From the NCBI GenBank assembly GCA_035605575.1, contig DASTCJ010000210.1, forward strand, positions 78,750-142,749: DNA of 64,000 nucleotides, given 5' to 3'. Position numbers and translations under genes: made by a program. The notes below the pieces were generated by a model. That model did no database searches, had not been told where the DNA came from, and was given only the letters and a program-made list of their open reading frames with translations. This document shows positions 32,889 through 48,900 of this stretch, one piece after another. The DNA is from Candidatus Methylomirabilota bacterium. GTDB taxonomy: Bacteria; Methylomirabilota; Methylomirabilia; Rokubacteriales; CSP1-6. The number at the start of each line of letters is the position of its first letter. Position 1 is the first letter of the stretch.

Positions 32889-33467
32889 TCAGGCGCGGCT
32901 GCCAGGCTTGATCGCCTGACTGCCGCCCGCGCAAAGCGGACATGCTTCCGGGGGCCACGTCGTCGCGCTGACAGTGGCCAGCGCGCTGCGCTTGACGCCG
33001 AAGCTCACGGCGCCACCGCTGCGGTCGATCAGCGAGCCGACGCCGACCACGGCGCCACCGAGATCCTGCACGCATTGCATGACCTCGCGCGTGGAGCCGC
33101 CGGTGGTGATGACGTCCTCCACGACCAGACAGCGCTCGCCGGCCGCCAGGGAGAAGCCGCGGCGCAGCCGCATCACCCCGCCTTCGCGCTCCGTGAACAG
33201 CGCGCGCACGCCCAGCGCCCGCCCGACCTCGTGCGCGACCAGGATGCCGCCGATGGCGGGCGCGAGGACCGCGTGCACGCCGTCGGCGCGAAACGTCGCC
33301 GCCAGCCCGCGGCCGAGCGCCGCCGCGTGCTCGGGATACTGAAGGACGAGCGCCGACTGCAGATAAAGGTCGGAGTGCAGACCGGACGTCAGACGGAAGT
33401 GGCCGCGCATCAAAGCGCCCGTCTTCTCGTAGAGCGCCAGTGTCTGGCGTTCGTCCAGTGTCGTCAT
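32889..33467 (-). CDS. pyrE: Orotate phosphoribosyltransferase
   Basis: GHF.L.SG.HS..Y.Q.A, PA.GGI, PRPP motif LVVEDVITTGGS. Confidence 0.96.
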   Translation of the reverse strand: MTTLDERQTLALYEKTGALMRGHFRLTSGLHSDLYLQSALVLQYPEHAAALGRGLAATFRADGVHAVLAPAIGGILVAHEVGRALGVRALFTEREGGVMRLRRGFSLAAGERCLVVEDVITTGGSTREVMQCVQDLGGAVVGVGSLIDRSGGAVSFGVKRSALATVSATTWPPEACPLCAGGSQAIKPGSRA

Positions 33468-33473
33468 GGCCCG

Positions 33474-33479
33474 ATTCTA
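33474..33479 (-). promoter_or_regulatory. -10 element for leaderless pyrE
   Basis: TAGAAT-CGGGCC-ATG (6-nt spacing, no SD). Confidence 0.6.
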
Positions 33480-33640
33480 TGTCAGACCGGCCGGCGATTC
33501 GCCGACACCGGGCCATCTGGCACGCCAAGCTGTCCCGACCCGTGACGGCCTGATCCCGCGCACCCGACAGCGCGCGACGGCTTCGCTCGCGCGACCCCGA
33601 TTTACGGCGCGATCGGCGAATCTTCGCGGACGCGCCGCGC

Positions 33641-33656
33641 TGGCAACCGCGTTGCA
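33641..33656 (+). promoter_or_regulatory. Sigma-54 (-24/-12) promoter of the chemosensory/Roadblock operon
   Basis: TGGCAACCGCGTTGCA with exact GG-N10-GC spacing. SD AAGGAGG at 33681-33687, ATG 33697. Confidence 0.7.
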
Positions 33657-33696
33657 CTTCGCGGCCGGGCACGCTCACCCAAGGAGGCTCCGTGCG

Positions 33697-34059
33697 ATGG
33701 CGAAGGTGATGGTGGTCGACGATGCGGTTTCGGAGCTGAAGCTCATGGAATCGATCCTGAAGTCGGCCGGGCATGAGGTGGTGTCGCTGGTGGATGGCGA
33801 GGCGCTGGAGGACAAGCTCTCCAGCGAGCGCCCCGACGTGCTGCTGCTCGACATCGTCATGCCCAAGCGCAACGGTTACGAGATCCTCCGCGCGCTGCGC
33901 AAGGACGCCCGCACGAAGACGACCCCGGTCGTGCTCGTCAGCAGCAAGAACCAGGAGAGCGACCGCGCCTGGGGCAAGCGGCAGGGCGCCGACGAGTATC
34001 TCGGCAAGCCATTCACTTCGGACCAGCTCCTCACGATGGTGAAGCGCTTTGTCCGATGA
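33697..34059 (+). CDS. pilH: Single-domain response regulator, PilH-like
   Basis: VVDD, LLDIVMP..NG, SSKNQESDRAWGKRQGADEYL.KPF, which closely follows the PilH pattern. Confidence 0.85.
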   Translation: MAKVMVVDDAVSELKLMESILKSAGHEVVSLVDGEALEDKLSSERPDVLLLDIVMPKRNGYEILRALRKDARTKTTPVVLVSSKNQESDRAWGKRQGADEYLGKPFTSDQLLTMVKRFVR

Positions 34060-34573
34060 CGCGGTCACGTCCGCGCCGTCGGTGGACGCGGCGCCCGCCG
34101 GGGCCGCCACCGAGACCGCGGCCGCCCCGCGACACCGGGCGTGCATCATCACACTCGGCGGTCAGCCGTTCGCGGTGGATGTCCGGGAGGCGCGCGAGGT
34201 CGTCATCCTCGAGCCGTTGACGCCGGTGCCGGGGGCGCCGCCGCCGCTCATCGGAGTCGCCAACCTGCGCGGCAGCGTTCTCGGCGTCGCGGAGGCGCGC
34301 CCCCTCCTCGGCGTACCGGCACGACCGGTGACGACGGGCTCGCCTGCCCTGGTTATCGCGGCCGGCGAGCTCGTGGCCGCGATCCCCATCGACCGCGTGG
34401 TCGGTCTCGACTGGTTCGATGAGCCGCAGCCGCTCGATGCCAATGACCGCCGGCCCGGCGTCGCGTTCGCCGCCGGGCTCGTACCGCACGCGGGTGACTA
34501 TGCCACGCTACTCGATGCTGGCCGGCTCCTGGACGCGCTGCGCGCGCCATGGGCGTCGGTCGCGGAGGCCTGA
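34049..34573 (+). CDS. cheW: CheW/PilI-like coupling protein
   Basis: LGGQ.FAVDV...REV......TPVPGAP..L.GV.NLRG....V. Start uncertain (TTG). Confidence 0.88.
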   Translation: MSDDAVTSAPSVDAAPAGAATETAAAPRHRACIITLGGQPFAVDVREAREVVILEPLTPVPGAPPPLIGVANLRGSVLGVAEARPLLGVPARPVTTGSPALVIAAGELVAAIPIDRVVGLDWFDEPQPLDANDRRPGVAFAAGLVPHAGDYATLLDAGRLLDALRAPWASVAEA

Positions 34574-34576
34574 TCC

Positions 34577-35905
34577 ATGAACCGTCGCCACTTTCTCGGA
34601 ATGCTCGCCGGCTCGCTCGTCCCCGGCGCCCCGCGCGCGTGGGCGCAGTCCCGCCCGGTTGGTGGTCGTGTCGCACCGGCCGAGCCGACGCCCGTGCGCG
34701 TGGCGACGCCGGCGGTGGCTGCCGTCCCCGGCGTCACGGCCCACGACATCCGGGTCGGCATGAGCGCGGCCTTCCGCGGCACCGCCGCGGGTCTCGGCAC
34801 CGAGTTCTACCGCGGCGCCCAGGCGTACTACAACGACGTCAACGGCAAGGGCGGCGTGCACGGTCGCGGCATCAGCGTGATCGCGCTCGACGACGGCTAC
34901 GAGCCCATTCCGTGCGTGAAGAACACCATTCGTCTCCTCGAAAAGGAGCCGGTGTTCCTGCTGTCCAACTACGTCGGAACGCCGACCCTGACGCGCGCGC
35001 TGCCGGTCATCAAACGCTACGCGGAAACACAGGCCGTGCTCGTCGGCAACTTTACGGGAGCGCAGCCGCAGCGCGAAGCACCGTATGCGGAGCACGTCTT
35101 CAATATCCGCGCCTCGTACCGGCAGGAGATGATGGCGCTGGTCGACCGCTTCTGGCAGCTCGGAGCCCGCAAGTTCGGTGTGTATTACCAGATCGACGCC
35201 TACGGCCGCAGCGGCACCGACGGCGTCGCCCGCGGCCTCGCCCAGCGCGGCGTCCGCATCGTGGCCGAGGCGACCTATCCACGCGGCGCCAAGTTCACCG
35301 ACGACATGACGCCAGCCGTGAACGCGCTACGCCGCGGAGGCGTCGACGTCGTGCTCTGCACGGGCGCCTATCAGGGCTGTGGGGCCTTCGTGCGGACCGC
35401 CCGCGACGCCGGCTGGACGGTGCCGATCTCGAACCTGTCCTTCGTGGGCTCCGAGGCGATGCTGGCGCTGCTCGTCAAGCACGGCAAAGCCGTCGGTCGT
35501 GATTACACGCGGGCGCTCGTGAACTCGCAGGTCGTGCCGAGCTACGACGACGTCAGCCTGCCGGGCGTGGCCGAGTATCGGCTGCTCATGGACCGACACA
35601 ATCCGCCGCTGCCCGAGTCGCTGCGCGATCCGAGCTACGCGCTGCAGCGCTACAGCTTCATCAGCCTCGAGGGCTTCGTGAACGCGAAGGTCATCGTCGA
35701 GGCGCTCCAGCGCACCGGGCCACAGCCGACCCGCGTGGCCTTCCGGCAAGCCCTCGAGTCGTTGCGCAACTTCGATCTGGGTATCGGTTCGAGCTTGAGC
35801 TTCGGCCCAGAGCGGCACCAGGGACTCGACTCCGTGTACTTCACCCGCGTCGACGGCGAGCGATGGATTCCCATCGCCGACTGGGCCGCGGCAATTTCGG
35901 TGTAG
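34577..35905 (+). CDS. Orphan type-1 periplasmic binding protein (LivJ-like fold, Tat signal) within the chemosensory operon
   Basis: MNRRHFL, I.VGMSAAF.G....LG, N..GGV.GR.I..IALDD.Y.P, FN.RASY..E. No permease or ATPase adjacent. Confidence 0.88.
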   Translation: MNRRHFLGMLAGSLVPGAPRAWAQSRPVGGRVAPAEPTPVRVATPAVAAVPGVTAHDIRVGMSAAFRGTAAGLGTEFYRGAQAYYNDVNGKGGVHGRGISVIALDDGYEPIPCVKNTIRLLEKEPVFLLSNYVGTPTLTRALPVIKRYAETQAVLVGNFTGAQPQREAPYAEHVFNIRASYRQEMMALVDRFWQLGARKFGVYYQIDAYGRSGTDGVARGLAQRGVRIVAEATYPRGAKFTDDMTPAVNALRRGGVDVVLCTGAYQGCGAFVRTARDAGWTVPISNLSFVGSEAMLALLVKHGKAVGRDYTRALVNSQVVPSYDDVSLPGVAEYRLLMDRHNPPLPESLRDPSYALQRYSFISLEGFVNAKVIVEALQRTGPQPTRVAFRQALESLRNFDLGIGSSLSFGPERHQGLDSVYFTRVDGERWIPIADWAAAISV

Positions 35906-35916
35906 GGGGCCTTCAC

Positions 35917-37692
35917 ATGACATCTGTGCGCCTTCGCTTCGGACTGCTGCCCAAGATGGTCGTGTTCCTGGCCGTCGTTCTCATCCCGCTGGCCGCGATC
36001 ACCTGGTATGTCTCCGTGCAGCGGCTGCGCGCCGAGATGACGGACGAGTTCACGTCGAAAGGAACCGCCATCGCGAACAGCCTGGCCTCCTCCGGCGTCG
36101 ATTTGATCCTCACGCGCGACGCCTCGACCGTGCAGGCACTCATCGACCAGTTCGTGAGCATCAGCGGCGTGCATTACGTCATGGTGTACGACTCGCAGAA
36201 GAACCTCATTGCGCATACGTTCCACCCCGTGGTGCCGCCCGACCTCATCGACAAGAACCTCGTGCCCGGCGACGCCGCCAAGCAGGTGCGCGACGTCGTC
36301 TATCAGCATCCCGTCACCGGTGAGTCGCAGGAGATCATCGACGTCGGCGTGCCGATGCTGGGTGGCCAGCTCGGCACCGTCCGCGTCGGCATGAACAAGG
36401 CGATCATCCACGCCGCTGCCGCCCGGGCGGGCTGGTTCCTGTCCGAGGTGTTCGGCGGCATCGCGCTGCTGGCCGTCCTCGCCGGCGCCATGTTCGCGAC
36501 CCGCCTGACGCAACCGATCAGCGCCATCGTCCGTGTCGCCGAGCACGTCGGTCGCGGAGATCTGTCGCAGACGGTGACCGTCCAGTCGCGCGACGAGATC
36601 GGGCAGCTCGCCCGTACCTTCAACGACACGATCGTGCGGCTGCGGGCCCACGTCACCACCGAGGCCGAACGCGACGAGGAGCGCCGCCGCCGCGAGAGCC
36701 TGCAGGCGAACATCACGCAGTTCCTTGAGACAATGACGGAGATCGCCCAGGGCGATCTGCGCCAGCGCGGCCAGGTGACCCCGGACGTCCTCGGCAACGT
36801 CGTGGACTCCGTGAACGTCATGGTCGAGGAGATCGGCGCCCTCCTCGCCGATGTCCGCCACGCGGCCACGCGCGTGGCCACGAGCGCCGGCGAGATGATC
36901 GGGGCCACCGACCAGGTGGCGCGTGGCGCCGAGACGCAGGCGCGCGACGCCACCACCGTGAGCCGCGAGGTGGAGACGATGACGCGGTCGGTGCGGCAGA
37001 TCGCGTCGAACGCGGGCTCGGCGGCCACCGCCGCGCGCCAGACGCTGCAGGCGGCCACGCGCGGCGAGGACGCCGTGCGCAACAGCCTGTCCGGCATGCA
37101 GCGGATCCGCGGCGAAGTGCAGGTCATCTCGAAGAAGATCAAGAGCCTCGGCGACCGCTCGCTCGAGATCTCGAACATCGTCGACACCATCGAGGAGATC
37201 GCCTCGCACACGAACCTCCTGGCGCTGAACGCGGCCATCGAGGCGGCCGGGGCCGGCGAGTACGGCGCGCGCTTTGCCGTGGTCGCCGATGAGATCCGCA
37301 AGCTCGCCGAGCGCGCGGCCAGCGCCACCAAGGACATCGCCGGCCTCATCCGCTCGGTCCAGACGGAGACGCAGGAGGCGGTCGTGGCGATGGAGGAAGG
37401 TACGCGAGAGGTCGAGGCGGGCTACCAGGTGACCATCAACGCCGAGGAGAGCTTGAAGCAGATCGCCGGCATTTCGCGCACGTCGGCCGAGCTCGCCGAG
37501 GAGATCTCCGGCGTCACTCAGGAGCAGGTGCGCGGCGCCGAAGGCGTGGCCACCGCCATGCGGTCGATCGCCCAGGTCGCCGTACACACCGAGCAGGCGG
37601 TGCTGCAGACGCGCCGGACGGTCGACGATCTCGTGAAAGTCGCCGACGAGCTCACCCGAAGCCTGTCACGGTTCAAGCTGGCGACCGCCTAG
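35917..37692 (+). CDS. Methyl-accepting chemotaxis protein (PilJ-like, two HAMP domains)
   Basis: Two TMs around a periplasmic domain, HAMP1 and HAMP2, signalling tip TNLLALNAAIEAA.AGE.G..FAVVADEIRKLAE. Confidence 0.95.
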   Translation: MTSVRLRFGLLPKMVVFLAVVLIPLAAITWYVSVQRLRAEMTDEFTSKGTAIANSLASSGVDLILTRDASTVQALIDQFVSISGVHYVMVYDSQKNLIAHTFHPVVPPDLIDKNLVPGDAAKQVRDVVYQHPVTGESQEIIDVGVPMLGGQLGTVRVGMNKAIIHAAAARAGWFLSEVFGGIALLAVLAGAMFATRLTQPISAIVRVAEHVGRGDLSQTVTVQSRDEIGQLARTFNDTIVRLRAHVTTEAERDEERRRRESLQANITQFLETMTEIAQGDLRQRGQVTPDVLGNVVDSVNVMVEEIGALLADVRHAATRVATSAGEMIGATDQVARGAETQARDATTVSREVETMTRSVRQIASNAGSAATAARQTLQAATRGEDAVRNSLSGMQRIRGEVQVISKKIKSLGDRSLEISNIVDTIEEIASHTNLLALNAAIEAAGAGEYGARFAVVADEIRKLAERAASATKDIAGLIRSVQTETQEAVVAMEEGTREVEAGYQVTINAEESLKQIAGISRTSAELAEEISGVTQEQVRGAEGVATAMRSIAQVAVHTEQAVLQTRRTVDDLVKVADELTRSLSRFKLATA

Positions 37693-37698
37693 CTGGAC

Positions 37699-40473
37699 AT
37701 GATGGAGTCGGCCGACCGGGAGTTTCTGCGCTCCATCTTTCTGATGGAGGCGTGGGAGACCGTCGCGGCTCTCGAGGATGGCGCGGAGGCGGCCGCCCGC
37801 GGCGACCTGGAGACGCTGTATGTCGTCACCCACCGTCTCAAGGGCGCCGCGTCGCTCTACGGCTTTCCCGCGATCGCCGCGCTCGCCGGCGATCTCGAAG
37901 CCGTCCTCGAGACGACGCCGTTCCCCGCCGTCCGTCTCGCGTCGCTGCTCGCAGATCTCAAGCGCGCGCTGGACTCGCTGCCCGCCGGCACAACGGTGGC
38001 GACCGCCGTGCAACCGGCCGCCGCGCCGTCTGCGCACGAGAGCGGTGATGCCGCCGACTCGGTGCTCGACGACCCGATCCGCCGCGAGCTCGCGGAGTTC
38101 TTCGCCGCCAACGTCGACGTCGCAGCGTATTTCGTGCCGGAGGCGACCGAGCATCTGGAGGCGATCGCGACGGCGCTCCTCGCGCTCGAGCGCGGCGGCG
38201 GCGAGGACGAGCTGGCGCGGTTGTTCCGCTCGATGCACACGATCAAGGGCGCCGCCTACGTCGTCGGCTGCGTGCGCATCGGTGAGCTGGCCCATCGCGC
38301 CGAGGATTTGCTGGTCGCGGTGCGCGAAGGCGAGGCGACGCTGTCGCCGCCGGCTCTCGAGGCGTTGTTTGCCGCGGTGGACGTCCTGAAGCTCATGCTT
38401 GGCATCAATGCGAATCCGACGGCGTCCATGACGACGCTGGCCGCGGACGTCGGCGGCCGGCTGGAGGCACTGCTCGCATCGCCGCCGACCCCGCGTGCAA
38501 TGGACGCGGCACCGGTGCCGCCGGCACCGGCCATGGCGGATACGCGTGTCGAGGCGCTGGTACCGGCGCGCGCGGCGCGGCGCCGCGCGCCGGCCTCGAG
38601 CGCGACGCCGCGGCGCGCGCCACGACAGACGATTCGCGTCAACCTCGAGCGCCTCGATGCGCTCATGGACCTGATCGGCGAGCTCGTGACCGGGCGCAGT
38701 CGCGTCGACCGCCGCCTCGACGAGCTGGATCGCGTGTCGGCATCGCTGTTCGCCAGTCGCGCCCGCCTGGCCGAGGCCGTGAGCGAGTTCGAGCGCCGGC
38801 AGCTCGACCCGCGACGCGCCAGCGTCGCGAAGCCAGCGGCGCCGGTCAAGCCGACCGTGATCGGCCAAAGCGGTCTATCAGTGGCCGAGATGTTCGCGGA
38901 GCTGGAGTTCGATCGGTACGACGACGCCGGCATGTTCGCCCGCAGCATCGCCGAGATCGCCTCGGACATCGCGGAGCTCCAGGCCGAGCTCGTCGGGGTG
39001 AACCGCGCGCTGCGTGACGACGTGGCCCAGGTGCACCGGCTGACGGCCGCCATTCGCGGCGAGATCGGTCGCGCGCGGCTGGTGCCCGTCGGCAATCTGT
39101 TCACGCGGTTCGTCCGTCAGGGCAAGGAAGCAGCCCGCGCGGCCGGCAAGCAGGTGCAGATCGAGACGCTCGGCGAGACGGTCGAGCTGGATACGTCGGT
39201 CATCGAGCAGATCGTGGACCCGCTGCTGCACCTCGTGCAGAACGCCATCGGGCATGGCATCGAGTCGGTGGACGAGCGGCGCGCTCGCGGGAAGCCGCCG
39301 ATCGGCGCCGTCACGCTGTCGGCGACGCATCAGGGCGGCGCCGTCGTGCTGGAGGTCGCCGACGACGGGCGCGGAATCGATACCGACCTCGTACGGCGCC
39401 GCGCGGTGGCGCGCGGATTCGTCAGCGCGGACAACGCGGCCGCCCTCAGCGATCGCGAGGCCATCGACCTCATCTTCCTGCCCGGCTTCAGCACCGCGAC
39501 CGCCGTGACGACGGCATCGGGTCGTGGCGTGGGCATGGATGTCGTTCGCACCAACGTTCGGCGACTGAACGGCGAGGTCGACGTGGCGTCGACCCCGGGC
39601 GAGGGCACGCGCTTCACGCTTCGGCTGCCCCTCACCGTGCTCGTGTCGGAGGCGCTGCTCGTGAGCGCCGGCGGCGAAACGTTCGCCGCTCCCCTGAACT
39701 CCGTGCAGCTGGTGACGGCCGTTTCCCCCGAGCGCGTCCGACCCGGGGTGCAGGGCGAAACGCTGAGCCTCGCCGAGGACACCGTCGATCTGGTGAGCCT
39801 GGCGACCATCCTTGGATTGCCGGAACCGCCGCGCGGTGCCCGTCGCCCCGCGGTGGTGCTGCGGGCGGCCGGACGCTCGCTCGGCGTCGAAGTGGACCAG
39901 CTCCTGCACAAGCAGGACATCGTCATCAAGCCGCTGGGGGCGTTTCTCGAGGGCGCCGGTCCGTACGCCGGGGCCACGGTCACTGCCGACGGCCGCGTGG
40001 TGCTGCTCCTCGACGCGCTGGGTGTCGCCGAGCAGGCCGCGCGCCGCGCGCGCGCCGAGCGCGCCGCGCCCTTGGCCGTCGATGCGACCAGCCGCCCGGC
40101 CGCGCGCAAGCGGGTGCTCCTCGTGGACGACTCGATCAGCGTGCGGCGGTTCGTCGGCCAGATGCTCGAGAAAGCGGGCTTCGAGGTCACCACCGCCGCC
40201 GATGGTGCCGACGCGATCGCCCGTGTCGGCGAGGGCGGTCGTTTCGACGTCGTCGTGACCGACCTCGAGATGCCGCGTGTGAATGGGTACGAGCTCATCG
40301 ACGATCTGCGCCGGCGCCCGTCCACGCGGGGGCTGCCGGTGATCGTCCTGACGACTCGCGCCGGCGACAAGCACGTCGCGCTTGCCCGGGACCTCGGTGT
40401 CGACCACTACGTCACGAAGCCGGTCGAGGAACGGACGTTCGTGTCCCTTGTGAGCTCGGTGGTGCACGGGTGA
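37699..40473 (+). CDS. cheA: Hybrid CheA/ChpA-like kinase (Hpt-Hpt-dimerisation-HATPase-CheW-REC)
   Basis: Hpt1 THRLKGAA, Hpt2 MHTIKGAA, RVNLERLD.LM.L.GEL, HLVQNAIGHGIE, DDGRG, LPGFSTA...SGRGVGMDVV, CheW domain, C-terminal REC (VTDLEMP..NG, KP). Confidence 0.95.
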   Translation: MMESADREFLRSIFLMEAWETVAALEDGAEAAARGDLETLYVVTHRLKGAASLYGFPAIAALAGDLEAVLETTPFPAVRLASLLADLKRALDSLPAGTTVATAVQPAAAPSAHESGDAADSVLDDPIRRELAEFFAANVDVAAYFVPEATEHLEAIATALLALERGGGEDELARLFRSMHTIKGAAYVVGCVRIGELAHRAEDLLVAVREGEATLSPPALEALFAAVDVLKLMLGINANPTASMTTLAADVGGRLEALLASPPTPRAMDAAPVPPAPAMADTRVEALVPARAARRRAPASSATPRRAPRQTIRVNLERLDALMDLIGELVTGRSRVDRRLDELDRVSASLFASRARLAEAVSEFERRQLDPRRASVAKPAAPVKPTVIGQSGLSVAEMFAELEFDRYDDAGMFARSIAEIASDIAELQAELVGVNRALRDDVAQVHRLTAAIRGEIGRARLVPVGNLFTRFVRQGKEAARAAGKQVQIETLGETVELDTSVIEQIVDPLLHLVQNAIGHGIESVDERRARGKPPIGAVTLSATHQGGAVVLEVADDGRGIDTDLVRRRAVARGFVSADNAAALSDREAIDLIFLPGFSTATAVTTASGRGVGMDVVRTNVRRLNGEVDVASTPGEGTRFTLRLPLTVLVSEALLVSAGGETFAAPLNSVQLVTAVSPERVRPGVQGETLSLAEDTVDLVSLATILGLPEPPRGARRPAVVLRAAGRSLGVEVDQLLHKQDIVIKPLGAFLEGAGPYAGATVTADGRVVLLLDALGVAEQAARRARAERAAPLAVDATSRPAARKRVLLVDDSISVRRFVGQMLEKAGFEVTTAADGADAIARVGEGGRFDVVVTDLEMPRVNGYELIDDLRRRPSTRGLPVIVLTTRAGDKHVALARDLGVDHYVTKPVEERTFVSLVSSVVHG

Positions 40474-41507
40474 AAGTCTTGATCGTCGACCCCGACGCCG
40501 CGCGCGCGGCGACGGTGGCCGCGGCGTTCACCGCCAATGGCGCGCAGCCCACCGTCGCGCCGAGTGCCTCGTTCGCGCTCACGATGCTCGAGTGGAATCG
40601 GCAGGACGTGATCATCAGCCGCTCGCAGCTCGGCGACATGGACGCGCACGAGCTGTGCTCCATGGTGCGTGGCGACCCCTCGACGGTTGGCGTGAGCTTC
40701 GTCCTGATCGCCAGCCCCATTCCGACCTCGCAGATGTCGCTGACGGGGGTCGATCTCGTCATTCCGGATGGACTCGTCGGTCCGGCGATCGTCACGCGCG
40801 TGACGCATCTGATGCGACGCAAGGCGCCGAGCAGCGCTGCCCTGCCATCGGCGCTGCCCGCGGCGCCCGCCAGGCCGCCCGCGGTCACGCCGGTGGCGCC
40901 GCTGGTGACAGAGCCGCTGTCGCTGACGCCCACACCGCCGGCAACGTCGATCCCCGCGCCAACGGACCCGGTCGTCGCGGCGCCCGCGGTGCCGACGCTC
41001 GTCGCATTGCCGCCAGCCGTCTCGAGTGCGCCGCCCGCTCCGCCATCACCGGTCGCGCCCGCGGCCACGCCGCCGGTCGTGGCGCCGACGGCCGGCGTCA
41101 TGCTGAAGGGGGCGGCGCCGCCACCGCCTCCGCTCACCGAGCTGGAAGCGGTCGGGATGAACGGCGCCATGCGGACGTTTCAGGGCGCGCTCGGAGCGCT
41201 CGCGCTCGAAGATATCGCGCGGGCCATCGTCAAGGGCACCAAGACGGGGCGCCTGCTCGTCGTGCTCGGCACCGGCGGCGGCATGTTGGCGTTCGAGAGC
41301 GGTCGCATCGTGCACGCCGAGATCGGCAACACCACCGGCGAGACCGCGTTCCGGTCGCTGCTGGCCGCGTCGCATGGCGACGCCGGCGGCAAATTCTGCT
41401 TCATTCCATCGTCGCCACGCGATCTCGCCAACGTCCCGAAGACGATTACTCGCACGGTGGCCGAGCTTCTGGCCGGCGCCGCCGAGGCGACGAACGAGGA
41501 GAGATAA
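40470..41507 (+). CDS. Pseudo-receiver + Pro/Ala-rich linker + DUF4388 (PATAN-like) protein
   Basis: REC-like N-terminus (KVLIVDPD, DVIISRSQL). C-terminal FQG.L..L.L.DI.......KTG.L.V......G.L.F..G.I.HA......GE.AF..L....G.F.F. Confidence 0.75.
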   Translation: MKVLIVDPDAARAATVAAAFTANGAQPTVAPSASFALTMLEWNRQDVIISRSQLGDMDAHELCSMVRGDPSTVGVSFVLIASPIPTSQMSLTGVDLVIPDGLVGPAIVTRVTHLMRRKAPSSAALPSALPAAPARPPAVTPVAPLVTEPLSLTPTPPATSIPAPTDPVVAAPAVPTLVALPPAVSSAPPAPPSPVAPAATPPVVAPTAGVMLKGAAPPPPPLTELEAVGMNGAMRTFQGALGALALEDIARAIVKGTKTGRLLVVLGTGGGMLAFESGRIVHAEIGNTTGETAFRSLLAASHGDAGGKFCFIPSSPRDLANVPKTITRTVAELLAGAAEATNEER

Positions 41508-41510
41508 ACC

Positions 41511-42470
41511 ATGCCCAAGGTCCTGGTCATCGACGACAGCGTCAGCGTGCGGAAGGTCGTGGAGCGCGCGCTGGCGGGAAGGCAGGTCGACGTCACCTGC
41601 GCAGCGTCGGGCACCGACGCGCTGGAGTGCATGGAGCGCGATGCCCCGGACGTCATCATCTGCGACGTCGTCATGCCGGATCGTGACGGCTACGAGATCT
41701 GCGAGTTCGTGAAGAAGCATCCGCGACTGGGCGAGATTCCGGTGCTGCTGATGTCGGGCATCGTGAACGACGAGGTCAAGCAGCGGGCGGCGCGCGCCCG
41801 TTCCGAGGGAGTGCTGGCCAAGCCGTTCGCCGCCGAGGATCTGCTCAAGCGTCTGGAGACACTCGTCGGTCCGCTCGCGCCGCGCGTGGCCGAGGCGACG
41901 ACGCCGAACGCTCCGGCGCCGTCGCCCGCCGTCGACGCGATACCGACGTTGATGCCGGTCTCCACACTGTCGGTGCCGCCGATCGAGCCGCTCAAGTCGA
42001 CACCGCCGAAGCCGGCGCCGGCGGTACCGGCGGTCGCCGCCGACATCACGCCATCCGACTCTGCACGTCGCGTGGCCGAGCCCGTGGCCATCGCGCCGAC
42101 GTCGGCGGTGGCCGCACCGACCGACGCGGCGGCCGCCGTCCTCGCGCAGTTCACCGCGATGAACGGCGTGCAGTGGGCGGTGTTGTCGGATCGCGAGGGC
42201 TTCGTGGTCGAGGCGACCACCAACGCCGGCGTCGATGCCGATGTCGCGGCCGCGCTGAGCGCGTGTCTGGCCGAGTCGTCGGACGGGCTCGGCAAGGAGC
42301 TTGGCCGGGGTGGCCTGCACAGCATCATGCTCGAGTACGAGAAGGGCATGGTGATCGTCTACAGCGCCGGCCTCGGGCTGCTCGCCGTCGGTATGAGCGA
42401 GCCCGCCGTCCTCGGCAAGGTGCGCTACTTCGCCAAGAAGGCGCTGCCGGAGCTGATGCGGTCGGTGTGA
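41511..42470 (+). CDS. Response regulator + Pro/Ala-rich linker + Roadblock/LC7 domain
   Basis: Intact REC (IDDS, CDVVMP, KPF). C-terminal L......GV..AVL.DREGFVV, AAL.A.L......G.EL..G.L..I.LEY..G.V. Confidence 0.85.
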   Translation: MPKVLVIDDSVSVRKVVERALAGRQVDVTCAASGTDALECMERDAPDVIICDVVMPDRDGYEICEFVKKHPRLGEIPVLLMSGIVNDEVKQRAARARSEGVLAKPFAAEDLLKRLETLVGPLAPRVAEATTPNAPAPSPAVDAIPTLMPVSTLSVPPIEPLKSTPPKPAPAVPAVAADITPSDSARRVAEPVAIAPTSAVAAPTDAAAAVLAQFTAMNGVQWAVLSDREGFVVEATTNAGVDADVAAALSACLAESSDGLGKELGRGGLHSIMLEYEKGMVIVYSAGLGLLAVGMSEPAVLGKVRYFAKKALPELMRSV

Positions 42471-44356
42471 TGCCGCGCTATCGCAAGTCGGAAACCCGTT
42501 GGGTGCATGCGGCATGCGTCGCGGGCGGCTATCTCGTCTGCGTCGCGGGCCTGTTCACCCTGCAGGCCGGCGCCGGCTTGAACGTGCCGATCTCGGTGGC
42601 GGTGTCGGCGCCGCCCCTGGTGTATGCGGCGTTGGCGGTGCTGCTGCTGCGGGAGGCCGCCTTCGTCCGACGCCTCTCCTGGCTCGGCGGTGCCTGTCTC
42701 GTGCACGTCGTTCTCGCCGGGCTGGCGGCGACGGAGCTCGCCTGGGCCGGCGGCCTGTCGCTCGGCAACGCTCTCGCGCAGGTGTTCGTACTGTTCCCTC
42801 CCGCCCCGCTGCTCACGCTGATCGCGACGCCGCTGATCCTCGCGACATTCGGGATGACCGCGTCCAGACCGGCGCCCCGTTCTGACGCCGCCGCGCCGCG
42901 GTTGGCGACCGGCACGCGATCCAGGGGCGTCATTCCGTCTCCGCGCGCTGCCGGCGCCGCGGCCGAGAGCGCGCCGACTGCCGCGCGGACGATCGCGCCA
43001 CCGACCACCCGCGTGGCTCCTTCCGTCGTGCCGATCGCCTCGACGCCGTCGCCCACGACACCGCCGGCCGTCGTTGCGCCGGCACCGACGGCGCCGCGCA
43101 CGAATCCACCGTCGAAGCCCGGCCGAGCGGCCAACGACGGCATGGTGCGCGTGCCGTTCGACCGAATCGCCGCGCAGCTTCCCGCCGAGGCATTCGTGCT
43201 GCCGTTCGAGCGACTTGGGGAAAGCCTCCGCGAGCCGCATGTGATCCTCGTCCCGCGGCGCGTCGTGCTCTCGCAGATGCGCGACGGCGCGGTCGTCATC
43301 ACGTGGGCGCACATCGCATCGCAGTTTCCGGACCTCGCGCTTGGAATGACGGGCGACCAGTTCCGAAAGGAATATCCCGATCTCAAATTCGTGCTGCCCG
43401 TGGACGAGCTGGACGCTCAGCTCACGCCCGACGCCGTCGGCACCGCGCCGGTCTCGGCGCCGTTGCCGGTCGTGGCGCCGAAACCGTCCGCGGTCCCCGC
43501 GCGAGCAGACGTCACGCCGACCCCGGCCGCGACAGTGGAGGCGCCCGCGTCGTCGCGGGCGCCCGCGGCGGCCAGCACCACGCCGGCTGCACGCGCGTTG
43601 CCCCGATCCGCACCGAGTTCACCACCGCCGGCGGAGATGATGGATCGCGGGACGCTGGCGCGCATCGTCGCCTGCTTCAGCGGGGTCGGCACGTTCGAAG
43701 CTGCGGCCGAGCGGAACGCGGGCACCGTGGCCGTGGTACTGGTCGAGCCAGGGGTGTCGCGCGAAGCGGCCATCGCCTGCGCCGGCCGGCTCCTGCCGTT
43801 CGTCGCGGGCGTTTCCGCCGACGTCGTCACGCTGCGTACCGAACGAACGGTGCTGGTGCTTGCCGCCGCGTCAGCACCGATCGTCGTTGCCGTGCATCGG
43901 CCCAACGCCTCGGTCGCGCTACTGGCGCTTCGAGCGCTGAGCGCTGCCGCCATTGCGGGCACCATCCCGCCGGCCACTCCAGCGCCACCGCGTCGCGATC
44001 TCGAGCCGATGGGATCCGATGATCGTGTGGCGCGCGCGGCGCTGGCGCTGCGGACTTTTGGCGGCGCCGAGCCGACCGTCTTCGCCGACGCGAGCGGGCG
44101 TGTGTACGTCTTCAGCGGCGGCGGAGGCGATGACAAGGGCGTGGCGGCCCTGGCTCTCGGTGTCGTCGAGGCACTCGGCGATGGCGGTGAGCTCGGGGCT
44201 CCGGTCACCGTGGTGTTCCGGCGCGGCGCCGAGCAGACGGTGATCCGTCCGCTCTCCGGGCGCGCGGGCGTTCTCGCCGCCACGGGCGTGGTGACGCGGC
44301 CGGGCCGCGCCCTGCGGGATGCCGAGCGGGCGGCGGCGGTCCTCGAGACGCGCTGA
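42470..44356 (+). CDS. Hypothetical 628-aa membrane-anchored scaffold (N-terminal TM bundle, Pro-rich linkers, internal repeat domain, two probable degenerate Roadblock-like domains)
   Basis: ATG shares one base with the upstream stop, and its own stop shares one base with the downstream ATG. Domain calls come from visual secondary-structure patterning only. Confidence 0.7.
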   Translation: MPRYRKSETRWVHAACVAGGYLVCVAGLFTLQAGAGLNVPISVAVSAPPLVYAALAVLLLREAAFVRRLSWLGGACLVHVVLAGLAATELAWAGGLSLGNALAQVFVLFPPAPLLTLIATPLILATFGMTASRPAPRSDAAAPRLATGTRSRGVIPSPRAAGAAAESAPTAARTIAPPTTRVAPSVVPIASTPSPTTPPAVVAPAPTAPRTNPPSKPGRAANDGMVRVPFDRIAAQLPAEAFVLPFERLGESLREPHVILVPRRVVLSQMRDGAVVITWAHIASQFPDLALGMTGDQFRKEYPDLKFVLPVDELDAQLTPDAVGTAPVSAPLPVVAPKPSAVPARADVTPTPAATVEAPASSRAPAAASTTPAARALPRSAPSSPPPAEMMDRGTLARIVACFSGVGTFEAAAERNAGTVAVVLVEPGVSREAAIACAGRLLPFVAGVSADVVTLRTERTVLVLAAASAPIVVAVHRPNASVALLALRALSAAAIAGTIPPATPAPPRRDLEPMGSDDRVARAALALRTFGGAEPTVFADASGRVYVFSGGGGDDKGVAALALGVVEALGDGGELGAPVTVVFRRGAEQTVIRPLSGRAGVLAATGVVTRPGRALRDAERAAAVLETR

Positions 44357-44799
44357 TGAGCGCGCGCCTCGCCATCGGCGACGGAGACATGGGGAAGGTC
44401 CAAGCGCTCCTGGAGCGCCTGCTCGCGGACACCGGTTGCGCTGCCGTCGTGCTGAGCGGCCGTGACGGCGCATCGCTTGCCACTGCTGGCGCCGCCCGCG
44501 CGCTCGACGTCGTGTCGATGACGGCGCTGGCGGCCGGCGGCTTCAGCTCGACGGCGCCGCTGGCCCGGCTCCTCGGGGAGCGCGAGTTCTCCGTCCTCAT
44601 TCACGAAGGGGTGCGCCAGAGCCTGCACGTGAGCGCCGTCGACGACGCGACGATCCTGGTGGCGGTGTTCGACGAGCGGACGACGGTCGGAATGGTTCGC
44701 GTCTTCGCGCGCGAAGCAGCGGCTAAGCTCGCCACCATCCTCGACGAAACGCGAGCGGGATCGGGCCATGCGCGCCGATCGGGGCCGGGCGAGACGTGA
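44356..44799 (+). CDS. mglB: MglB-like Roadblock/LC7 protein
   Basis: Aligns by eye with Myxococcus MglB: L.RL..D.....V.L....G..L..AG....D..S...L.AG.......LA.L.GE.EF....HEG...SL....V....LV..FD.RT..G.VR. Confidence 0.8.
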   Translation: MSARLAIGDGDMGKVQALLERLLADTGCAAVVLSGRDGASLATAGAARALDVVSMTALAAGGFSSTAPLARLLGEREFSVLIHEGVRQSLHVSAVDDATILVAVFDERTTVGMVRVFAREAAAKLATILDETRAGSGHARRSGPGET

Positions 44800-45200
44800 C
44801 ACCGCGCCTCAAGCTCGCCATGGAGCACGACGGGCCGTCGCGCGGCCGGTTCGTGCGCGACGTGGTGCAGCAGCTCCTGAAGCTCCGCGCGGTGCGCGGC
44901 GCGCTCCTGGTCGCCCCGGATGGCTTCGTGATCGCCGCCGAAGTGCCGAACGCGGTGGCGATCGAGCCACTGGCTGCGATGGCGGCACGGCTGGGCCGCG
45001 ATCTCGAGTCGAGCGCGGGGAGGATGGGTCGCGCGTCCTTCTCGACGGCGATGTTCTCGGGGCCGGACGGGCCGATGTTCCTCGCGGCGGCACCGATCGG
45101 CTACGTGGTCGTGCTCGCCGAGCAGCGCGCCAACCACGAGGCCATCCGCAGCGCTACCGAGGAGGCCGTCGCGCTGCTCCAGAGCGCCTGGACTGATTAG
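44796..45200 (+). CDS. Roadblock/LC7 domain protein (MglC-like)
   Basis: L.....VRGALLV.PDG.VIA, LAAMAA.L...L......G...F.......G..F. GTGA overlap with mglB. Confidence 0.8.
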   Translation: MTPRLKLAMEHDGPSRGRFVRDVVQQLLKLRAVRGALLVAPDGFVIAAEVPNAVAIEPLAAMAARLGRDLESSAGRMGRASFSTAMFSGPDGPMFLAAAPIGYVVVLAEQRANHEAIRSATEEAVALLQSAWTD

Positions 45201-45913
45201 CGCCCGCTGAGCTCGGCGATGATTGCGGCGGCGGCCGCTCCGGGATCGGCGGCGGCGGTGATGGGCCGGCCGACGACGAGGTAATCAGCCCCGGCCTGGA
45301 CCGCCGTGCGCGGCGTGGCCACCCGCTTCTGATCATCCTCGCCGGTCGTGGACGCGGGTCGGATGCCCGGGGTCACGATGGTGAAGCGCCGACCCAGCGC
45401 GAGCCGGAGACGACGGATCTCCTGCGGAGATGCCACGCAGCCGTCGAGACCCGCGTCGCGCGCCGCCTCCGCCAGTCTCAGCACGTGACTCTCGACGCTC
45501 GCCGGCACGCCCATCTCCCGCTCGAGCGCGCGGCGGTCGAGGCTCGTGAGCACGGTAACGCCGAGACAGATCGGGCGGGCGACGCCGAACTCCCGCGCGG
45601 CCTGTCCGGCCGCCTCGGCGGCCGCGCGCATCATCTCGAGTCCTCCCGAAGCGTGGACGTTGAGCATGAACACACCGAGGCGCGACGCGCTGCGGACGGC
45701 ACCGGCCACGGTATTCGGGATGTCGTGAAACTTCAGATCGAGGAACACACGGAGGCCGCGCTTGTGCGCGAGATCCACCGCCGCCGGACCCGCGCTGGTG
45801 AAGAGCTGCGAGCCGATCTTCACGCCGGTCACCGCGCCCTCGAGACGGTCGAGCAGCCGTGCCGCGTCGTCGAGCGCTTCGACGTCGACGGCCACGAACA
45901 GCCGGTCACGCAT
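45197..45913 (-). CDS. pyrF: Orotidine 5-prime-phosphate decarboxylase
   Basis: [51 protein letters not shown]. Confidence 0.97.
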
Positions 45914-48900
45914 CGCTGTGGTACTCCTGCAGGCTCCGCACGCCCTGCTCGCCCTTCAGCAGCGCCTCGATGGCGCCGATGGCGGCCTGGGCGCCGTCGA
46001 CGGTGAGGTAGTAGGGGATGTTCTGGCCGACCGCCGTGCGGCGAATGGCCGCCGAATCCTTGCGCGCGCGCCCGTCTTCCGGCGTGTTGAAGACGAGCGC
46101 GATGTCGCCGCGCTTCATCAGGTCGACGACGTTCGGGCGGTGTCCCTCCAGCACCTTGTGCACGAGCTCCACCGTCATGCCCTGACGCTCGAGCACACGG
46201 GCCGTTCCGGCCGTGGCCACCAGCGTGAAGCCCATCTCCACGAGTCGCCGCGCCAGCGTGGTCAGCGCGCGCTTGTCGCGATTCTTGACGGAGACGAAGA
46301 CTTTCCCGGACGTGGGCAGCGCGGAGCTGGCCGCGATCTGCGACTTGAGATAGGCCTTGCGAAAATCGCGGTCGAGGCCCATGACCTCGCCGGTCGACTT
46401 CATCTCGGGACCGAGCACGATGTCGACGCCGGGGAACTTGATGAACGGGAATACCGACTCCTTCACCGCGATGTGCCGGAGCTCGCGCTCCTCGATGTGG
46501 GCGATCTCGCCCACCACCGCCTGACCGAGCATGGCGCGCGTGGCAATCTTGGCCAGCGGCACGCCGATGGCCTTCGAGACGAAGGGAACGGTGCGGGAGG
46601 CGCGGGGGTTCACCTCGAGCACGTAGATGGCCTCGTTGCGGATGGCGAACTGGACGTTGATCAGGCCGACCACGCCGAGCGCCTTCGCCAGCGCCTTCGT
46701 CTGCGCACGCAAGGCGCGGACCTGACCATCGTCGAGGCTGTAGGGCGGCAGCGCGCACGCGGCGTCGCCGGAGTGCACGCCGGCCTTCTCGATGTGCTCC
46801 ATGACGCCGCCGACCACGACGCCCTGTGTGTCGGCGACCGCATCGACGTCGATCTCGAGCGAGTCCTCGAGGAACTTGTCGATGAGGATTGGATGCTCGG
46901 GCGCCGCCTCCACCGCTTCGCCGACGAACTGCACCAGATCCTGGTCGTCGTACACGATGCGCATGGCCCGGCCGCCGAGGACGTACGAGGGCCGCACGAG
47001 CACCGGATACCCGAGCCGTCCTGCCACCTGGCGCGCCTCGGGCAGGGCGCGGACGGTGGCACCGGCGGCCTGGTTGAGTCCGAGCTCGTCGAGTAGCGCG
47101 CTGAAGCGCTGGCGATCCTCGGCGCGGTCGATGGCGTCCGGCGACGTGCCGAGGATCGGCACGCCGGCCTGCTGCAGGGAGACGGCGAGCTTGAGCGGTG
47201 TCTGTCCGCCGAACTGTACGATCACCCCGAGCGGCTTCTCCTTCTCGACCACGTTGAGCACGTCCTCGAACGTGAGAGGCTCGAAGTACAGTCGGTCCGA
47301 GGTGTCATAGTCGGTCGAAACCGTTTCGGGGTTGCAGTTGACCATGATCGCTTCGACGCCGTGGTCCTTCAACGCGAATGCCGCGTGCACGCAGCAGTAA
47401 TCGAACTCGATGCCCTGTCCGATGCGATTCGGCCCCGAGCCGAGGATGATGACCTTCCGGCGGCGGGTGGGCGGCGCCTCGTCCTCCTCCTCGTACGTCG
47501 AGTAGAGATACGGCGTGTGGGCGACGAACTCGGCCGCGCACGTGTCGACTGTCTTGAACGTGGCTCGAATGCCCTGCGACAGCCGGAGCGCGCGGATCTC
47601 GTTCTCGGTGCGGTCCGTGAGCCGGCCGATGAAGCGATCGGCGAACCCGAGCTGCTTGGCGCGCCGCAAGACGCTCGGGTCCGTCAGGGCGTCGCGCCGA
47701 ATCTGCGCCTCGTAGGCCACGATCTCGCGGATGTTCTCGATGAACCACGGGTCGATCTTCGTCACCCCGTGGACTTCCGCCGTGGACATTCCCGCGCGGA
47801 GCGCGTCGCCGAGCGCGAACAGCCGATCCGGATTCGGCACCCGTAACAGTCCCCGCAGCGTCTCCTCGTCGAGGTCGCGATCGAGCGTGAGGCCGAAGCG
47901 GTCCTGCTCGAGCGAGCGGACGGCCTTCTGCAGCGCCTCCTTGAACGTGCGCCCGATGGCCATCGCCTCGCCAACGGATTTCATCTGTGTAGTGAGCGTG
48001 CGATCGGCCTCGGGGAACTTCTCGAAGGCCCAGCGCGGGAACTTCACGACGCAGTAGTCGATGGCGGGCTCGAACGACGCCGGCGTCTCCCGCGTGATGT
48101 CGTTGCGCACCTCGTCGAGCCGATACCCGACGGCCAGCTTGGCGGCGATCTTCGCGATCGGAAACCCGGTGGCCTTCGAGGCGAGCGCGGAGGAGCGCGA
48201 TACGCGTGGATTCATCTCGATCACGACGAGGCGGCCGTCGGCAGGATTCACCGCGAACTGGATGTTCGATCCGCCCGTCTCGACTCCGATCTCGCGGATG
48301 ATGGCGACGGCGGCATCGCGCATGAGCTGATATTCCTTGTCGGTCAGCGTCTGCGCGGGCGCGACGGTGATCGAGTCACCCGTGTGCACGCCCATGGGGT
48401 CGAGGTTCTCGATCGAGCAGATGATGACGACATTGTCGGCGAGGTCGCGCATGACCTCGAGCTCGAATTCCTTCCACCCGATCACCGACTCTTCGATGAG
48501 CACGGTGCCGAGCGGGGACATCTGGACGCCCCAGCGCACCGCCTCTTCGAGCTCCTCGGGATTGTAGGCGATCGAGCCGCCGGTGCCGCCGAGCGTGAAC
48601 GACGGCCGGATGATCGCGGGATAGCCGGTGGTGCGGACGATGGTCTTCGCTTCCTCGAACGAGCGCGCCAGACCGGAGCGCGGCAGCGTGAGGCCGACGC
48701 GCTCGATGGCCTGCTTGAAGAGCTGGCGGTCCTCCGCCTTCCGGATGGCCGGGATCTTGGCGCCGATGAGCTCGACGCCGAAGCGATCGAGCGTGCCGTC
48801 CTCGGCGAGCGCCACCGCCAGGTTCAGCGCCGTCTGGCCGCCGAGCGTCGGCAAGAGCGCCTGCGGCCGCTCGCGCTCGATGATCTTCGCCACGAACTCC

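Follow-up and report, generated by a model that had tools for sequence, protein, structure and literature searches.

An orphan MglB-type Roadblock gene in a pilus-type chemosensory operon of Rokubacteria and the loss of its GTPase gene, mglA

What does an MglB protein do in an operon that encodes no MglA, and how did the two come to be separated? MglB of Myxococcus xanthus and Thermus thermophilus is a Roadblock-fold GTPase-activating protein (GAP) of the Ras-like GTPase MglA, and acts as an exchange factor for guanine nucleotides (GEF) through its C-terminal helix. The question is posed by a stretch of 64,000 nucleotides (hereafter the window; contig DASTCJ010000210.1 of GenBank assembly GCA_035605575.1, positions 78,750 to 142,749) from a soil Candidatus Methylomirabilota bacterium of the Rokubacteriales, in which ten co-directional genes spanning 33466-45200 end in an MglB-type gene and a second Roadblock gene, here called Robl2. 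The window lies within a contig of 145.8 kb that carries housekeeping genes, in a metagenome-assembled genome (MAG) that is 88.9% complete and has roughly 70% GC. A preliminary description, made from the sequence alone, had offered two readings, namely that mglA acts in trans or that the two Roadblock proteins work independently of a GTPase as hetero-oligomeric scaffolds. Comparison with related genomes shows that the GTPase was lost in one event, and makes it probable that the pair is the remnant of an operon that joined a chemosensory (Che) pathway, MglA/MglB and a dedicated PilB paralogue (PilB2); MglB may have been kept for an MglA-independent job.

The missing GTPase and the deletion of mglA

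The region 44356-45200 contains two open reading frames (ORFs) for Roadblock proteins, the first of them MglB-like, as had been described. The first protein passes the Pfam model Robl_LC7 (29.6 bits, cut-off 23) and scores 73.8 bits (E 1.6e-20) on the NCBIfam model NF052242 MglB, which is under the equivalog cut-off of 200; the name of the model, GTPaseActivMglBThm, suggests a Thermus-type equivalog. A phmmer search of the PDB retrieves M. xanthus MglB (E 4e-21) and Thermus MglB (E 3e-14), with values ranging to 1e-13 and no match above background other than MglB chains. The AlphaFold2 model (predicted local distance difference test score, pLDDT, of 84.5 from a 33-sequence alignment) has the Roadblock topology alpha-beta-beta-alpha-beta-beta-beta-alpha, and a Foldseek search of the PDB with this model places MglB at all of ranks 1-30, ahead of other Roadblocks (probability 1.00). 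The core motifs LA.L.GE.EF..HEG and FD.RT..G.VR are common to this protein and the MglBs of M. xanthus and Thermus, and synteny together with 60-72% core identity marks it as orthologous to the MglBs of sister species that adjoin a Group-1 MglA. As far as sequence and modelled fold tell, the protein is a true MglB-type Roadblock. Its earlier characterization as a close MglB homologue is to be taken in a relative sense, given that identity to M. xanthus MglB is only 32-33%. The model ends in helix alpha3 (111-139) and a disordered tail of eight residues, with no further C-terminal helix; the long C-terminal helix is missing, as previously noted, and so is the C-terminal tail that is conserved in the orthologues.

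No GTPase gene is present at the locus, and none of the MglA type was found in the assembly. Searches by tblastn and phmmer with M. xanthus MglA found no MglA, and a hidden Markov model (HMM) built on M. xanthus MglA and the MglAs of seven relatives, and searched with filters off (--max) against all six-frame ORFs of at least 60 aa, reached a best E of 0.15. The Pfam Arf and Ras models match only in two ORFs of ~849 and ~599 aa that are common to every genome tested and are taken for IF2 and LepA, given their size and where the GTPase domain lies in them. An MglA-specific NCBIfam model does not exist (M. xanthus MglA matches only TIGR00231, under its cut-off). As a positive control, the same searches recovered the MglAs of the congeners G008 and G006, and the Arf/Ras models were positive in 12-14 control genomes. 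Likewise, no MglA-, Ras- or Arf-like small GTPase was found in four sister assemblies that have the same gene order (G001, G002, G010 and G011; G010 is 98% complete). The GTPase-free end of the operon seen in the preliminary description is borne out by these searches, and its proposal of an mglA in trans, for which it had suggested a genome-wide HMM search, is not.

Relatives of the window genome show where the gene belongs. A clear orthologue of the window MglB (50-78% identity) is present in 14 of 40 relatives, and in ten of these mglA lies directly upstream; the count for MglB-bearing relatives is ten of 15. Scanning one genome per species gave 38 loci, of which 37 could be judged, L056 being truncated on the 5' side; mglA-mglB is the order in 33 of the 37, with mglA interrupted in one (L050), and four (those of G002, G010, G001 and G011) share the window order Big-mglB-Robl2-pyrF, Big being a large protein encoded upstream. 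The relatives' MglA is of the Group-1 type, 54-62% identical to M. xanthus MglA, with the DRT arginine and the TVPGQ motif kept. The full operon, as found in G008 and recurring across genera, encodes CheA-REC, REC-PATAN, REC-Roadblock, Big, MglA, MglB, the PilB paralogue, a tetratricopeptide repeat (TPR) protein and Robl2; pilB2 and the TPR gene lie between mglB and Robl2 in G008 and 17 further loci. The operon-specific PilB paralogue has 744 aa, made up of an N-terminal extension, MshEN and T2SSE. Since mglA is normally present in orthologous Rokubacteria operons (directly upstream of mglB in 32 of the 36 other loci open to judgement), its absence is a lineage-specific loss and the window operon is not an ancestral GTPase-free module.

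The junctions show how the loss happened. In G008 the sequence reads ...CGC TGA ATG (mglA) ... TCGTGATG (mglB), i.e., TCG TGATG at the start of mglB, and the window lacks exactly the mglA ORF, with the result that the stop codon of Big now overlaps the start of mglB. Overlapping junctions of the window type are found in G002, G010, G001 and G011, so that the type is the same in all five mglA-less genomes. The PilB paralogue is also missing from all five, and Robl2 adjoins mglB because pilB2 and the TPR gene have been deleted. Maximum-likelihood analysis of PyrF, CarB and Robl2, concatenated in one alignment, groups the five mglA-less species in a single clade (SH-aLRT 99.5, ultrafast bootstrap (UFBoot) 100) that is sister to the mglA-containing congeners (99.8/100); CarB alone left the clade unresolved. 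In the ancestor of these five species, mglA was excised ORF for ORF with translational coupling kept, and pilB2 and the TPR gene were deleted as well. There was one loss event, and the GTPase-free arrangement is derived, not the original design. The second Roadblock gene had been described as following mglB instead of mglA; however, the mglA of this lineage sits upstream of mglB, so Robl2 does not stand in its place and ordinarily closes the operon. A canonical PilB of 577-580 aa (~74% identical to the PilB paralogue) is encoded by all mglA-containing congeners tested and by three of the five mglA-less genomes (G002, G010 and the window genome); no copy was detected in G001 and G011, which are 86% and 75% complete.

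Two alternatives bear on the absence of the gene itself. Orthologous operons that normally include mglA had been taken in advance as the sign of a strain-specific loss or an assembly artefact. The chance that the locus reflects faulty assembly or binning, or a deletion at strain level, is negligible. All data come from MAGs, but the identical junction in five independent MAGs, from different studies and assemblers, shows that it is not an assembly artefact; the 145.8-kb contig with its housekeeping genes agrees with this, the loss is shared by five species, and the synonymous divergence (dS) of 0.5-0.9 among them indicates that the mglA-less state is old. It is also very improbable that the 11% of the genome missing from the assembly hides an mglA, or that a highly divergent GTPase serves in trans. 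The incompleteness of the assembly leaves room for such a gene, and functional orphans of the MglA and MglB families, with genes located away from those of their partners, have been described (PMC4316618), but MglA is absent from all five assemblies with this locus, a protein as similar to M. xanthus MglA as that of the relatives is easily detected and the HMM found none, the Arf/Ras matches are confined to the large ORFs taken as translation factors, and the decay of the MglA-contact elements of MglB described below would be unexpected if a partner existed.

Evolution of MglB after the loss of mglA

The consequences for MglB were followed in an alignment of 35 Rokubacteria MglBs (30 linked to mglA and five orphans) with M. 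xanthus MglB. A C-terminal tail of the form R-x-R-P-[KR]-x-x-G-x-h-A-x-P-L with an acidic stretch, which sits at the position of the M. xanthus C-terminal helix, is present in all 30 linked MglBs and in none of the five orphans, whose tails are short and unrelated or missing (e.g., the G001 protein is tailless); the G011 protein also lacks the N-terminal eight residues. Among the 75 columns that are at least 90% conserved in the linked MglBs, 14 are altered in four or all five of the orphans (six in the tail and eight in the core, the latter at M. xanthus positions 6, 12, 26, 55, 68, 82, 94 and 116), and the other 61 are kept in most orphans. The segment FD-RTTVGMVR-FA-EA is near-identical across all five orphan proteins.

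The elements of MglB that contact MglA have been mapped experimentally to the N-terminal strand, the switch-I contacts N37 and R98, and the C-terminal segment (PMC11016934), and arginine substitutions in the hydrophobic patch of helix alpha2 cut affinity ten-fold and cripple GAP activity (PMC3199381). A check of the MglA-contacting residues, which the preliminary description had called for, finds these features altered in the orphans. The C-terminal tail is gone; D-x-V-I-[HQ]-E, the motif of the N-terminal strand, is either degenerate or deleted; and position 68 in the alpha2 patch (G68 in M. xanthus, A72 in T. thermophilus) is Ala in 30 of 30 linked MglBs and Pro in five of five orphans; position 64 in the same patch (A64 in M. 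xanthus, A68 in T. thermophilus) is occupied by Ser or Gly. Changes also affect positions 37 and 98: the linked Rokubacteria MglBs have S/G and E/D/Q here, unlike M. xanthus, and the orphans D/G/R and A/G. At three sites where the 30 linked MglBs are invariant, substitutions are fixed in all five orphans (S26 to A/T, A68 to P and F82 to I).

Rates of change differ between MglB and the other products of the operon. In relative-rate tests after Tajima, for which two other genera served as outgroups, MglB shows 25-28 orphan-specific replacements versus 4-7 in G008 (p 2e-5 to 1e-3), the result being weaker for the G001 protein (16-17 versus 4-5). The controls are clock-like (CheA, 65 versus 83 and 67 versus 67; REC-Roadblock, 20 versus 20), and Robl2 is nearly so (15-19 versus 12-16 for the window copy, not significant). 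Since the loss, the MglB protein has evolved ~5 times faster (25 versus 5 unique changes, p ~1e-4), and CheA, REC-Roadblock and Robl2 have not. The ratio of nonsynonymous to synonymous change (Nei-Gojobori omega) of MglB is 0.07-0.12 in the mglA-containing congeners and 0.17-0.47 among the orphans, a 3-4 fold rise, these values being rough because dS is near saturation; in the post-loss clade all 95% intervals from bootstrapping are <1, their upper bounds being at most 0.75. Both mglB and Robl2 are intact and under purifying selection in the five species, with no frameshifts or stops in mglB. Judged from these sequences, the constraint on MglB is relaxed or shifted at the MglA-binding features, and the gene is not neutral, its core being under purifying selection.

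These patterns also bear on whether mglB is a decaying relic that became dispensable with the loss of mglA and is now drifting, its reading frame staying open only through the scarcity of stop codons in DNA of 72% GC and the location of the gene between retained ones. The acceleration, the loss of the C-terminal tail, the raised omega relative to the mglA-containing congeners and the truncated ends of the G011 and G001 proteins are what such drift would produce. However, the intervals of omega that stay below one throughout the post-loss clade, the unaltered state of most of the strongly conserved core columns (e.g., FD-RTTVGMVR-FA-EA), the coupling kept to both neighbouring genes and the intact ORFs in five species at the divergence given above make a relic unlikely.

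Candidate functions of the orphan MglB

On the remnant explanation, mglB and Robl2 are what is left of the output end of the ancestral Rokubacteria operon, in which a pilus-type chemosensory pathway without CheB and CheR is joined with an MglA/MglB switch of Group 1 and with a PilB paralogue of its own. The orphan MglB would no longer act as GAP or GEF, and may persist through an MglA-independent job already held by the ancestral protein, the likeliest candidate being that of a Roadblock-Roadblock adaptor or polar landmark, with Robl2 and/or the REC-Roadblock response regulator. There is precedent for an MglA-independent role of this kind: MglB and MglC of M. xanthus form a 4:2 Roadblock complex (PMC7949163), and MglB is still found at the cell poles without MglA (PMC3199381). 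A GTPase-independent Roadblock role of MglB and Robl2, one of the two options of the preliminary description, is plausible on what the sequences offer. As a tentative and more specific proposal, MglB may have had an ancestral, MglA-independent structural role as a subunit of a multi-Roadblock platform (MglB, Robl2 and REC-Roadblock) that coupled chemosensory signalling of the pilus type to the cell pole or to the motor of the pili; the clade would then be a natural 'mglA knockout' in which this role alone is left. If this were true, Ragulator-like scaffolding by stacked Roadblock dimers would predate, or be separable from, GTPase regulation in bacteria.

The canonical type IV pilus machinery has been retained, and the pathway would still steer it, probably for the most part via REC-PATAN. 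The window genome encodes pilin, PilS, PilR, PilC and PilB on the same contig as mglB (~58-66 kb upstream of it), as well as PilT-like ATPases (Table 1). PATAN regulators are reported to contact the pilus motor directly in cyanobacteria (bioRxiv 10.1101/2021.06.11.447907); such contact offers a possible CheA-to-pili route without MglA, and that route is in turn a possible reason why the MglA-PilB2 branch could be lost. Retention of PilB and PilT is also compatible with a repurposing of the orphan MglB, perhaps with Robl2, to act on another P-loop protein (e.g., the canonical PilB or PilT ATPases). The fixed changes, that in alpha2 included, would in this case be adaptations to the new partner; the three fixed substitutions fit a shift over pure relaxation, and the Roadblock superfamily has been proposed as general NTPase regulators (Koonin and Aravind 2000, as cited in PMC4316618). 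Nevertheless, no candidate partner gene lies beside the mglB-Robl2 pair, no gene has been gained at the locus, and omega stays high within the clade, suggesting continuing relaxation and not a single burst; repurposing is judged quite unlikely.

Robl2 itself is a generic Roadblock protein. Its AlphaFold2 model (pLDDT 89) has the Roadblock fold, with Foldseek TM scores of 0.75-0.87 to Roadblock proteins and best matches to Asgard archaeal Roadblocks, MglB and LAMTOR2, and it is only distantly related to the window MglB (hhalign E 1.6e-4). Orthologues from 18 loci are 54-88% identical, Robl2 being the last gene of the operon in species with and without mglA alike, and its omega is 0.10-0.36. MglC of M. 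xanthus is a Roadblock paralogue of MglB that binds both MglB and RomR. Robl2 is likewise a small, stand-alone Roadblock encoded with MglB, but it has no specific sequence or structural affinity to MglC, whose structures (7CT3/7CY1) are absent from its phmmer matches (E up to 10) and from the top 50 Foldseek matches; as an MglC counterpart it was rejected.

The historical part of the remnant explanation is well supported, and its functional half is what we infer. Several further points weigh against the explanation as a whole. Raised omega and loss of the interface are also expected of a dispensable gene that decays slowly, ORFs readily stay open at ~72% GC, and the dS values of 0.5-0.9 that enter omega are near saturation. 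Robl2 lacks any specific likeness to MglC. Finally, all genomes are MAGs (75-98% complete), and the absence of mglA rests on five incomplete assemblies and a contiguous locus.

Orphan MglBs as such have been described: 328 of 749 members of the MglB family are not coupled to MglA, and some of these have been attributed to loss of mglA from a conserved locus, the actinobacterial conservons (Wuichet and Sogaard-Andersen 2015, PMC4316618). The same survey found Group-1 MglAs coupled to two MglB-family genes, only one of which co-evolves. The window locus fits the category of mglA loss, but differs from those orphans in that the operon is of the Group-1 motility type, the loss is dated to one node, a PilB paralogue was lost along with the GTPase, and molecular after-effects on MglB are measurable. 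Orphan MglBs that arose through mglA loss are thus already known; the dated loss, the co-loss of the PilB paralogue and the measurable erosion of MglA contacts are new. Relative to the MglBs of M. xanthus and Thermus, the window protein has the same fold, subfamily and core motifs, and differs in the absence of MglA from the genome, the missing C-terminal helix or tail, the Pro at the alpha2 patch, the degenerate N-terminal strand and a score under the NF052242 cut-off. No paper linking Rokubacteria and MglA was found in the literature searched.

To our knowledge, almost no orphan MglB-family protein apart from MglC has been studied. The window clade provides a clean natural experiment on MglB without MglA, since its sister species keep the complete operon. 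Decay at the biochemically defined contacts (the C-terminal segment, the N-terminal strand and the alpha2 patch) lends independent evolutionary support to the contact maps, and the constrained Roadblock core marks the part of MglB that may serve a GTPase-independent function. Throughout the phylum, the Rokubacteria operon physically links a type IV pilus (Tfp)-type chemosensory system, MglA/MglB and a dedicated PilB paralogue, a linkage that suggests a direct route from Che to MglA to PilB. In Myxococcus such a route has been inferred only genetically.

The operon and its variants in the phylum

The ten genes of the window operon, their junctions and the pilus genes found elsewhere in the genome are listed in Table 1. 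A methyl-accepting chemotaxis protein (MCP), CheW, a hybrid CheA-REC kinase, a stand-alone REC protein and a PATAN/DUF4388 regulator identify the operon as of the pilus type (Tfp class), and no CheB or CheR domain was found by Pfam among its ten proteins. The receiver domain of REC-PATAN scores 20 bits on Response_reg, under the cut-off of 30.2. The same components (REC, CheW, MCP, hybrid CheA-REC and REC plus PATAN in one operon, with a type IV pilus set) are found in Pil-Chp and cyanobacterial Tax-type systems. The window operon differs from the PATAN-REC proteins of those systems in having REC before PATAN, and from the systems as a whole in its extra Roadblock-domain proteins; the ancestral Rokubacteria operon differs further in including the MglA/MglB switch and the dedicated PilB paralogue. 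The co-directional mglB, which starts with ATG, and Robl2 overlap in such a way that mglB is translationally coupled to both of its neighbours. No promoter or terminator was found in a scan of 42000-46200.

Table 1. Features of the chemosensory operon and associated pilus genes (window positions unless a genome and contig are given)
Feature	Position	Strand	Evidence or remark
Stand-alone REC protein that opens the pilus-type chemosensory cluster	33466..34059	+	Pfam Response_reg, 87 bits
CheW	34049..34573	+	Pfam CheW, 72.8 bits
Periplasmic binding protein within the chemosensory cluster	34577..35905	+	Pfam Peripla_BP_6, 150 bits
MCP (sCache_3_2 + HAMP + MCPsignal)	35863..37692	+	Pfam
Hybrid CheA-REC kinase (Hpt x2, H-kinase_dim, HATPase_c, CheW, REC)	37699..40473	+	Pfam
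REC-PATAN (REC-like + Pro/Ala linker + DUF4388 (PATAN))	40470..41507	+	Pfam DUF4388, 32.7 bits
REC-Roadblock (REC-Robl), response regulator with C-terminal Roadblock	41511..42470	+	Pfam Response_reg 83.9 bits, Robl_LC7 47.4 bits
Big, ~629 aa, hydrophobic N-terminus	42467..44356	+	No Pfam or NCBIfam match
TGATG junction, Big stop / mglB start (1-nt overlap)	44354..44358	+	Scar where the relatives' 202-codon mglA is missing
mglB, orphan MglB orthologue, 147 aa	44356..44799	+	Roadblock core intact, C-terminal tail lost, Pro at alpha2 contact position
GTGA overlap (4 nt), Robl2 start / mglB stop	44796..44799	+	Relatives carry pilB2 (~744 aa) and a TPR protein (~279 aa) here
Robl2, generic Roadblock/LC7, 134 aa, GTG start	44796..45200	+	Pfam, 30.1 bits
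pyrF, convergent, with carB next; the operon's 3' boundary, conserved within the genus	45197..45913	-	ORF and synteny
Canonical type IV pilus cluster	G000:C140:57923-65181 (~14-21 kb before window start)		Pilin with N-methylation motif, PilR (sigma-54 activator), PilS (6TM_PilS), PilC, PilB
Two adjacent PilT-like ATPases	G000:C7:36353-38660

The position of Big is conserved in 28 loci, where it follows REC-Roadblock and directly precedes mglA or mglB, and its sequence changes rapidly, orthologues being 26-60% identical. Tandem Roadblock domains at the C-terminal end of Big find no support at the sequence level in hhalign comparisons of the last 270 aa of 28 orthologues with the MglB profile (E 0.74) and the Robl2 profile (E 0.041), the probability being at most 1.3%. 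In G008, the N-terminal extension of the PilB paralogue (L025:10882-13116) measures ~230 aa and consists of a helical part and a Pro-rich repeat, placed before MshEN and T2SSE, and the C-terminal half of the TPR protein (L025:13130-13969) reads like a putative Roadblock-type domain.

Several loci depart from the full gene order. Two (L046 and L049) encode MglA-MglB-TPR-Robl2 without the PilB paralogue, and in L051 a second MglB-like gene (41% identity), Robl2 and a TPR gene follow just after mglB on the opposite strand. In L061 and L067, from MAGs titled 'bacterium' or 'uncultured bacterium', a Robl2-like gene lies directly upstream of mglA-mglB. Typical Rokubacteria-type operon contigs also occur in MAGs titled Polyangia or Binatia (L041, L060 and L070), which are probably binning or labelling errors; L070 nests inside Rokubacteria in the CheA tree.

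In the mglA-containing congener QHSO01000174 ('AR29 curated'; L027:7373-7833, G003:C266, the same as L050:5505-5998), mglA has an internal deletion of ~110 nt that removes approximately residues 27-51, from the end of the P-loop through switch I, and shifts the frame. The mglB gene beside this interrupted mglA is of the normal, tail-bearing type, and the deletion is either a very recent second, independent inactivation in the genus or an assembly error. Neither MglA nor MglB is present in about half of the genera of the same family (G004, G012, G013, G016, G018-G020 and G022-G024). Robl2 is also absent from all of these genomes except G020, and two of the genomes are 98-100% complete. It therefore seems that the operon is commonly lost as a whole in the family, partial loss of the kind described here being confined to one clade.

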